From Pseudomonas phage CRPAP1904: a stretch of 62,430 nucleotides of DNA. The notes under the pieces were generated by a model. The model was not told the origin of the DNA. It did no database searches and saw nothing but the letters and a program-made list of their open reading frames with translations. Every line of letters begins with the position of its first letter. Within the stretch, counting starts at the first letter, position 1. Position numbers and translations under genes: made by a program. Below are positions 58,189 through 59,265 of this stretch, one piece after another. Where the stretch lies: sequence record PQ741025.1, one strand, 5' to 3'.

Positions 58189-59265
58189 TCAGCACTCGTA
58201 CGGGAGCGGCTTAGGCTTGAAGCGTTCGATGGTCTTGAGCAGCCACTTCAGGTGGGCTTTGGCTAGTTTCGGCGCATCAGAAGCCAGCTGGTACAGCTCC
58301 TGCTCTTCCATGCTCAGGCAACGGTGTAGTTCCTGCATGCTGAACGCCTGACAACCGATCTGTATGACGTTCGTGGTGTAGATGATCGGGTAGTCGTGGA
58401 TGTTCAGCGACATGAACTGCGTCGGGTTCGGTCGGCTGAGCCTGCATCCGCGCATGCTTTCGATGTCGACGTGGAACGCGGTGCGCATATCCACGTTCGT
58501 CAGATCGGCATCTTGCAGAGCCACGCCGATCAGGTAGGACGCCGGGAAAACGGTGTCGTAGAACACATCGCCTTCGAAGGTCACATGTATGAGCTTCGAC
58601 ATGTAGAAGGAGACGTAGTTGAGTTGTATCTCCGGCATAGGAGTGGGATCTATCGATAGGCGGAAGCGTACTTCGTACATTTTGCAGCCGTTGAATTTGG
58701 CGTTCGCCCATGTACCTTCGTGGAAAAACGTACCGAGGAAAATGCAGTTGATGAATTTGGCACGGTAACCGACGCATCTGACGAATGAACCGCCGAAGAA
58801 AACACAATTCGTGAACGTCGCATCGACCATGTGGATGTTCTGGAAGAGGCAGTCATTGAAGAAACAACTGGTGAACCGGCCGTAGCACATGAGTCGGTCG
58901 AGTTGGCTCCTGGGAGGCTTCGTGAGGGTGGTAGGGCTGGCGCTGTGACGGACCAGGGCCAGCTCGAACACGTGCTTGTCGAAGTCGCCATGGCATTGCG
59001 TCCTGGCTTTGGCGAGTTGAGCCTTCGAGCCGATGTATGGAACAGCGTCGGAAGTGTTGGATTTGTCGAAGATGAAACCGTTCACGTACGAGTCATAGCT
59101 GGACGTGCCGCGCAGTCCATAGTCTGCGTAGGTTCTGGTCATGGCCAAGGCGCTCACTTCCGGGAGGCGGTCATCCAGATCGGCTTCGAATGCTTTCGAT
59201 ATCTCGACTTTGGTGAGCAAGCGTCTGTGCTTGGTAGGCATGGGGTAATCGGCGAAGGACGGCAT
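58189..59265 (-). CDS. pentapeptide-repeat protein (Qnr/MfpA-like beta-helix, candidate DNA mimic)
   Basis: 5-residue periodicity FFNDC LFQNI HMVDA TFTNC VFFGG SFVRC VGYRA KFINC IFLGT ... over >20 repeats. Confidence 0.7.
   Translation of the reverse strand: MPSFADYPMPTKHRRLLTKVEISKAFEADLDDRLPEVSALAMTRTYADYGLRGTSSYDSYVNGFIFDKSNTSDAVPYIGSKAQLAKARTQCHGDFDKHVFELALVRHSASPTTLTKPPRSQLDRLMCYGRFTSCFFNDCLFQNIHMVDATFTNCVFFGGSFVRCVGYRAKFINCIFLGTFFHEGTWANAKFNGCKMYEVRFRLSIDPTPMPEIQLNYVSFYMSKLIHVTFEGDVFYDTVFPASYLIGVALQDADLTNVDMRTAFHVDIESMRGCRLSRPNPTQFMSLNIHDYPIIYTTNVIQIGCQAFSMQELHRCLSMEEQELYQLASDAPKLAKAHLKWLLKTIERFKPKPLPYEC

Follow-up and report, generated by a model that had tools for sequence, protein, structure and literature searches.

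Pentapeptide-repeat proteins (PRPs) are common in phage genomes, and none has been assigned a function in the literature that we searched. What such a protein might do for a lytic phage is the question raised by a 358-amino-acid (aa) PRP encoded on the minus strand of Pseudomonas phage CRPAP1904 (sequence record PQ741025.1; the whole stretch of 62,430 nucleotides (nt) is referred to here as the window). A preliminary description of this DNA proposed the protein as a candidate DNA mimic inhibiting gyrase, restriction or defence enzymes, and called phage-encoded PRPs poorly characterized, which holds in the literature and libraries searched. Calling the product a PRP is correct and is not new: its ortholog in phage KPP25, ORF032 (BAO58505.1), is labelled ‘hypothetical proteins containing pentapeptide repeats’ in GenBank. 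What is new here is a corrected repeat anatomy, negative evidence on DNA mimicry, and the observation that the gene belongs to a two-gene exchangeable cassette. The explanation that we favor, and hold only tentatively, is that the protein may be a non-enzymatic binder of a strain-variable host factor.

Repeat anatomy and predicted fold

The PRP gene has an AGGAG ribosome-binding site 8 nt ahead of its ATG. Two Pfam entries match its product above their gathering thresholds, PF13576 (37.3 bits, cut-off 27, best stretch at residues 216-258) and PF00805 (32.6 bits, cut-off 20.2, residues 235-261), and a third, PF13599, scores 37.9 bits, marginally below its cut-off of 38. The orthologs in KPP25 (ORF032), phiR18 and YMC17/07/R4900a have 78-97% aa identity to it, equal length and the same genomic position, and do not differ from it in any substantive way. 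Together with the KPP25 annotation and the periodicity described below, the Pfam scores confirm that this is a PRP.

Only about 40% of the protein is repeat, the remainder being two non-repeat extensions (residues 1-125 and 268-358). There are 25 pentads, arranged as 15 (residues 129-203), a 14-residue loop (204-217) and then approximately ten more (218-267), rather than the more than 20 consecutive pentapeptides reported previously. The consensus also differs from the A(D/N)LXX pattern that was first suggested, and is better written as (C/A/V)xFx(D/N/G). The central position, i, is F in 15 of the 25 pentads, L in four and M in three (F, L, M or W in 23), and position i-2 is C, A, V, G, T or S in 23, mostly Cys, Ala or Val. 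By contrast with the earlier pattern, D or N occurs at i-1 in only two pentads, and D, N or G stands at i+2 in 15. Within the first block, Phe is central in 11 pentads and Cys occupies i-2 in six.

The periodicity of this arrangement is strong. For F, L, M, I and W across residues 126-270, the period-5 power is 3.33, compared with 0.20 +/- 0.20 after shuffling, and none of 5000 shuffles reached the observed value; the first block taken alone gives 2.83 against 0.22, again with none of 5000. The regions flanking the repeats carry no period-5 signal. Two other open reading frames (ORFs), at 58277-58807 (-) and 58831-59310 (+), were considered and taken as spurious, since the substitution pattern fits the PRP frame. 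The PRP at locus L009 (4001-5092, P0002) has 363 aa because five residues are duplicated in tandem (DKHV-L-DKHV) in the linker that precedes the repeats, where the N-terminal extension is most variable; the resulting difference in length is small.

A structure prediction was made with AlphaFold2 from an alignment of eight sequences, and the resulting model has a whole-chain mean predicted local distance difference test score (pLDDT) of 66.7. Three-residue strands recur every five residues over residues 130-202 and again from 219, with pLDDT values of 85-93 there, and in a search of PDB sequences the PRP family profile retrieves AlbG (5e-10) and MfpA (3e-9). The repeats are thus predicted, almost certainly correctly, to form a right-handed quadrilateral beta-helix of about 25 pentads in six coils, with four pentads per coil. 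The Qnr/MfpA-like quadrilateral beta-helix anticipated in the preliminary description is therefore borne out, both by the prediction and by the profile match to solved PRPs.

Outside the helix the model is less certain. Loop residues 205-210 have pLDDT values below 50. The N-terminal extension reaches 65-82 inside the full-length model, as opposed to 46.5 (predicted template modelling score, pTM, 0.15) when modelled alone, which suggests that it packs against the beta-helix and is not an independent domain; the separate model, intended for a fold search, was discarded as unusable at these values. The C-terminal extension is modelled as degenerate strands followed by four short predicted helices, with pLDDT values of 35-63 that leave its fold uncertain.

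Exchange of a two-gene cassette

Judged by nucleotide identity to three Kochitakasuvirus phages, the window is a nearly complete genome of this genus, from a further isolate or species. Over 4 kb around the PRP gene, identity is 95.7% to Pseudomonas phage phiR18 and 91.7-92.4% to KPP25 and YMC17/07/R4900a, the three being P. aeruginosa podoviruses with genomes of 63.5-64.1 kb. The relatives compared here also include the metagenomic loci L002/L003 and L005/L006, on contigs of up to 64 kb (L001 is KPP25 itself), and the synteny of the PRP gene is kept in every relative examined.

In L002/L003 and L005/L006, exactly the same position is occupied by a 344-aa PRP homolog. When the window is compared with L005 in sliding windows of 60 nt, identity is 92-100% outside the interval from ~59,370 to 57,950 and 22-85% inside it, with sharp edges. 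The interval contains the PRP gene and the gene for a 73-aa basic protein, which starts 3 nt past the PRP stop codon (Table 1). Across the interval the two alleles of the PRP and the 73-aa protein show 44-46% aa identity and a synonymous divergence (dS) of 0.9-1.2; the flanking genes compared have dS values of 0.07-0.26. Such high synonymous divergence points to replacement by a distantly related allele, and we read the two deep alleles as the product of recombinational replacement of a 1.4-kb module, not of rapid adaptation in place.

The alleles travel as pairs. In all eight phages compared, the 73-aa protein accompanies a PRP of 358 or 363 aa, and a 70-aa version accompanies the 344-aa PRP. 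A fusion of the two proteins by stop-codon read-through was considered, as the genes share a frame across the 3-nt spacer in both the window and KPP25. It was rejected as a conserved feature because the second allele has a gap of 19 nt and a different frame.

Divergence between the PRP alleles is distributed unevenly along the chain. Identity is 60-63% over residues 1-30, 16-36% over residues 31-125, 49-57% in the repeat blocks and 86% over the last 21 residues. The loop is only 14% identical to that of the second allele, and 29% identical even to that of KPP25.

The upstream edge of the cassette bears on one alternative, namely that the PRP works with the two small hydrophobic proteins encoded ahead of it (67 and 108 aa) as a module for superinfection exclusion or competition between phages. 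Co-transcription with both genes is probable, the 67-aa protein has a predicted transmembrane segment, and its gene is hypervariable like that of the PRP (42-88% identity across relatives; ratio of nonsynonymous to synonymous substitution rates, dN/dS, 0.76). All the same we consider this reading most unlikely. No signal peptide or transmembrane segment is visible on direct reading of the PRP sequence, and the edge of the cassette separates the PRP gene from the 108-aa gene, which is 100% conserved in this comparison. Moreover, the 67-aa allele varies independently of the PRP allele, its identity being 86.6% in L005 and 42% in L002, two loci that share the same PRP form.

Table 1. Features at and around the PRP locus, with aa identity and dS for the comparison of the window with L005
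Feature	Position	Strand	Remarks	aa identity (%)	dS
Tandem 49-nt element, three copies	59939..60154	-	79 and 88 bp apart, directed towards the operon; candidate promoter or operator		
67-aa protein	59674..59877	-	One predicted transmembrane segment; first gene past the intergenic region		
108-aa hydrophobic protein	59335..59661	-	Presumably membrane-embedded; second gene past the intergenic region	100	0.13
Exchangeable cassette, ~1.4 kb	57950..59370	-	Last codons of the 108-aa gene, PRP gene and 73-aa gene		
PRP gene, 358 aa	58189..59265	-	ORF; Pfam; PHROG 29257 (E-value 1.6e-244)	44	1.18
N-terminal extension	58891..59265	-	Residues 1-125; basic (pI 8.7); no homologs outside the family		
Repeat block 1	58657..58881	-	Residues 129-203; 15 consecutive pentads, nearly four coils		
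Loop	58615..58656	-	Residues 204-217; interrupts the helix; most variable segment of the PRP		
Repeat block 2	58465..58614	-	Residues 218-267; ~10 pentads; outward residues net -4		
C-terminal extension	58189..58464	-	Residues 268-358 and stop codon		
73-aa basic protein	57964..58185	-	pI 9.5; PHROG 30688	46	0.90
DUF3268 zinc-finger protein, 177 aa	57426..57959	-	Directly past the cassette; Pfam E-value 2.4e-33	93	0.26
Next gene downstream	57115..57438			96	

Selection and distribution

Among the six phages with the 358/363-aa form, the PRP gene as a whole has a dN/dS of 0.28, compared with 0.03-0.17 in most of its conserved neighbors. By position, the ratio is 0.07 in the inward core (i-2 and i), 0.26 at outward-facing residues and ~1.1 in the loop, the last of these being based on 14 codons only. 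These three values exclude a chance ORF, and the substitution pattern is that expected of a folded beta-helix with a functional, evolving surface.

The family is narrowly distributed. A search of 5.8 billion clustered proteins returned seven relatives, and a profile search of 1.84 billion representatives covered the full length in two clusters at 50% identity, all other matches among the 150 listed being centered on the repeat region. In a tblastn search of 50,697 phage records, the whole PRP was present in Kochitakasuvirus only. A profile of the C-terminal extension found just a fragment of the same family, in a search of doubtful sensitivity that returned few candidates and missed the full-length family. 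A profile search with the 73-aa protein found no homologs outside the phage group.

Other phage PRPs do share the fold. A Foldseek search of BFVD matched proteins of Pseudomonas phage tabernarius, Staphylococcus phage Twort (ORF044), Eggerthella phage PMBT5 and Listeria phage (CKA15_017), together with many from uncultured Caudoviricetes, with E-values of 1e-7 to 1e-4 and whole-length TM-scores of at most 0.34. They have no detectable sequence relationship to the window PRP beyond the repeats, and its extensions are not shared by them. The Listeria gene CKA15_017 is part of an operon made up of hypothetical genes (PMC12282133).

Resemblance to topoisomerase-binding proteins and the question of DNA mimicry

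One comparison is with PRPs that act on topoisomerases, and one alternative is that the window PRP is itself of the Qnr/MfpA type and imitates a DNA segment when it binds the gyrase or topoisomerase IV of P. aeruginosa. It would then either block supercoiling in the host as the phage takes over, or shield gyrase, on which the phage depends, from poisons such as the ParE-type toxins set free in abortive infection. Several features agree with this: the pentads, with Phe at the center and Cys at i-2, recall those of Qnr and AlbG, as does the one protruding loop, helices are predicted at the C-terminus, where topoisomerase PRPs dimerize, and a gyrase inhibitor, Igy, is already known from another P. 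aeruginosa phage, LUZ24 (PMC10886550).

The membership of the protein in these families is not borne out by scores. The Qnr equivalog model of NCBIfam, with a cut-off of 240, gives it 15.9 bits and the MfpA model, with a cut-off of 360, gives it 16.3; the second-allele PRP obtains 25.1 and 23.6 bits, respectively. Identity to QnrB1, AhQnr, EfsQnr, MfpA, AlbG and McbG is 13-22%, far under the family cut-offs. The best NCBIfam match is to HalA, the Hailong effector, at 27.6 bits against a cut-off of 250, in a protein with no visible transmembrane domain; this lead was dropped, as ten unrelated PRPs match HalA equally well or better. Those same ten proteins do not discriminate between the models for HalA, Qnr, MfpA and HetL, and stay below the cut-off of each. 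Since unrelated short PRPs match the same models, and since most solved PRP structures come from the topoisomerase group, the resemblance is uninformative: on sequence grounds, the likeness to Qnr, MfpA, AlbG and HalA is one of fold and not of subfamily.

The architecture is also different. Topoisomerase PRPs have 180-220 aa that are nearly all repeat, in eight to ten coils, whereas the window PRP has 358 aa, about six canonical coils confined to residues 129-267, and extensions of 125 aa (N-terminal) and 91 aa (C-terminal) that are foreign to that group. Topoisomerase PRPs end in a short C-terminal dimerization helix; here, the corresponding helices are those of the poorly modelled segment at pLDDT 35-63. 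Unlike the topoisomerase PRPs, the protein comes from a lytic phage, where its gene shares a recombining cassette with that of a small partner.

The surface was assessed from composition and from the repeat register. The full-length protein has a net charge of +1 and an isoelectric point (pI) of 7.55, and so lacks the strongly acidic character of the DNA mimics Ocr, ArdA and Arn. The two extensions, with pI values of 8.7 and 8.8, are basic; the repeat domain has a pI of 5.4 and a net charge of -4. Its outward residues are net +4 over the first 15 pentads and net -4 over the last ten, and one face of the first block bears a hydrophobic stripe (F, V, F, I, L, Y), so that the first four coils present a basic and hydrophobic surface. 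Asp and Glu make up 9.7% of the repeat domain, compared with 13-15% in AlbG, MfpA and QnrB1, and aromatic residues 18.8%, compared with 7-12% in the comparison PRPs. The net charge of the repeat domain, -2.8 per 100 aa, is on the other hand much the same as that of QnrB1 and MfpA, a point in favor of a Qnr/MfpA-type protein; the sequences of QnrB1 and M. tuberculosis MfpA used for these comparisons are approximate. The surface charge thus gives a divided answer, a mildly acidic repeat domain in a neutral protein whose first block is positive outward.

Gyrase is conserved within P. aeruginosa, and swapping of deeply diverged alleles, here at 44% identity, is unexpected for an inhibitor of so constant a target. 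Taking the scores, the architecture, the charge of the first four coils and the allele swaps together, we regard a Qnr/MfpA-type role as distinctly improbable.

Mimicry of DNA could instead serve anti-restriction or anti-BREX activity of the Ocr/ArdA kind, an acidic rod filling the DNA-binding groove of defence enzymes. In phage T7, gene 0.3, which encodes Ocr, sits among promoter-proximal accessory genes, a position that the PRP gene shares. The beta-helix of MfpA has roughly the diameter of B-DNA, as the one predicted here would too, and allelic replacement is typical of counter-defence loci. The neutral charge, the low acidic content and the positive outward surface of the first block all speak against an acidic rod, part of which would moreover be covered if the N-terminal extension packs on the helix. 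In addition, in published tests the PRPs McbG and QnrB failed to inhibit BREX, and DNA mimicry alone was insufficient for such inhibition (PMC7261183). We therefore rate this alternative as very unlikely.

Overall, the evidence for DNA mimicry by the PRP, as read from sequence, is weak to negative, and the earlier proposal of a DNA mimic acting on gyrase, restriction or defence is left unsupported. An anti-defence role is plausible nonetheless, but its basis is where the gene lies and how its alleles are replaced, not DNA mimicry.

Proposed function

We propose that the PRP would be a cytoplasmic, non-enzymatic protein, in which a beta-helix core carries one protruding, fast-evolving loop and is capped at both ends by the extensions peculiar to this family. 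Its gene and that of the 73-aa basic protein constitute the 1.4-kb cassette that is exchanged as a unit through recombination between lytic P. aeruginosa podoviruses. The rigid helix, the variable loop and the outward surfaces would together offer a platform for protein-protein interactions, acting by stoichiometric binding, and this platform may sequester or inhibit a strain-variable host factor, with a component of anti-phage defence or another nucleic-acid-handling enzyme as the most plausible target. The conserved termini may have an invariant role, such as dimerization or binding of the 73-aa partner. No catalytic or other domain was found beyond the repeats in Pfam, NCBIfam or PADLOC. 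In PADLOC-DB, searched at E-values of up to 1, neither the PRP nor any of four neighboring products (the 73-aa, 67-aa, 108-aa and DUF3268 proteins) has a match. A strain-variable target is preferred over gyrase because deeply diverged alleles of this promoter-proximal, accessory module are exchanged among near-identical lytic phages of one host species.

A number of observations weigh against this proposal. Mosaicism is frequent across the accessory block, with identities of 42-68% in some comparisons, so allelic replacement is not specific evidence for counter-defence. Partnership between the PRP and the 73-aa protein is suggested by co-inheritance and the 3-nt spacing, and by these two observations only. 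The 358-aa allele is under purifying and not positive selection overall (dN/dS 0.28), and the elevated ratio of the loop comes from just 14 codons. The element that precedes the operon is also found ahead of tail-fibre-like genes, which makes an early timing of the operon less certain, and no functional work on Kochitakasuvirus genes or on phage PRPs was found in the literature searched.

A more specific form of the proposal would make the PRP and the 73-aa protein a two-component module for counter-defence or host specificity, in which different alleles neutralize different variants of a P. aeruginosa immunity protein and the loop and outward faces set the specificity. We consider this unlikely as it stands. 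If true, it would provide the first function for a phage PRP, and would show the beta-helix used as an evolvable inhibitor scaffold and not as a DNA mimic.

The conserved termini could also be explained if the PRP acts inside the phage program, as an adaptor or regulator that works with the 73-aa protein on the replication or transcription machinery of the phage, for example by redirecting host RNA polymerase to the repeated phage-specific elements upstream. The PRP lies at the same position in every group member examined, and no RNA polymerase or sigma factor was recognized among the window proteins scanned, yet long conserved repeats stand ahead of two gene clusters. Such a protein would be expected to co-evolve with its machinery, yet a 44%-identical allele has been swapped into backbones that are 92-100% identical, and we know of no precedent for PRPs as transcription factors. 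A phage-internal role accordingly appears to us improbable.

For the binding of a strain-variable host factor that we favor, the natural allele pair is of particular use. Two alleles with 44% identity in backbones that are 92-100% identical make the role of a phage PRP directly testable, and since they occur in a genus that contains therapeutic phages (KPP25, phiR18, CRPAP1904), the pair could reveal whether the PRP gene sets strain range. A positive answer would bear on the choice and engineering of phages to be used against P. aeruginosa, and would extend what the PRP fold is known to do; with a negative one, the gene is one more accessory ORFan with a recognizable fold.

Genomic context and upstream elements

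The plus strand encodes the terminase, the major head protein, large virion proteins and tail-fibre-like genes from ~1 to 32.7 kb. The minus strand is used from 62.4 kb down to 32.7 kb. Its first block (62.4-53 kb) consists of small genes with no recognized function and is followed at 49-40 kb by primase-, polymerase-, exonuclease- and helicase-like genes. The PRP gene is situated in that first block, among the small ORFans ahead of the replication-type genes.

The preliminary description had made the PRP the third gene of an early operon, after two small membrane proteins. The gene order stands, but the PRP is not third on the arm, as five further minus-strand genes lie upstream (62.4-60.55 kb); it is third after a 676-bp AT-rich intergenic region. 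That region has 47% GC, includes a 100-bp block at 26% GC and is preceded by a gene with a terminator-like hairpin after it. Early expression of the operon is a reasonable inference from its position, and caution is called for because the 49-nt element in the intergenic region also precedes the tail-fibre-like genes at 29.7-29.9 kb. Of the two upstream proteins, the 108-aa protein is nearly invariant (99-100% identity in all relatives, dN/dS 0.03) and has windows of hydrophobicity greater than 1.6 as far as residue ~45.

The 24-mer core of the 49-nt element would have no chance matches expected, and it is kept in all relatives, in one to three copies. A consensus scan found no sigma-70-like site on the operon strand. 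The elements do not fit the sigma-54 consensus either, since TGGCAC-N5-CTCC lacks the -12 GC at the correct spacing.

A conserved module within these repeats, TCGTAACATCGTRACA followed after ~15 nt by CCGCGTGGCACTAAGGCTCCAGCGTGTTACGAAATTTT, occurs in two intergenic regions ~30 kb apart. Near the PRP operon there are three leftward copies, at 59939-60154 (-), and one partial rightward copy, at 60330-60353 (+); in the other region, two rightward copies, at 29690-29750 (+) and 29886-29925 (+), lie ahead of the tail-fibre-like genes. The module could be a phage-specific promoter or operator, or a set of origin iterons. The same two regions share an AT-rich block of ~90 bp in the same orientation (29800-29860 and 60200-60290; 26% GC at 60195-60295), followed by TCGTAACATCGTAACAGAAA. 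Block and sequence together make a segment of ~200 bp that is duplicated roughly opposite itself on the circular map, and could mark a DNA-unwinding element or origin, or the physical ends of the genome.

The PRP cassette is, from the identity profiles, one of several exchange hotspots on the minus arm. At 53852-56320 (-), three other genes are 53%, 68% and 67% identical to KPP25, while their neighbors are 91-98% identical. The DUF3268 protein directly past the cassette is conserved, with 90-93% identity in all relatives. Further along, at 56566-57102 (-), a tandem (PAQ/PTQ)n repeat, EPTQPTQPAQPAQPAQPAQPAQP, forms part of a 178-aa protein that varies in length among relatives, the alignment with KPP25 occupying 218 columns for its 178 residues. 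No structured RNA or tRNA was found in the window. On the plus strand, a 2107-aa ORF at 23252-29575 (+) matches only PHROGs annotated as ‘virion structural protein’, and no Pfam family.

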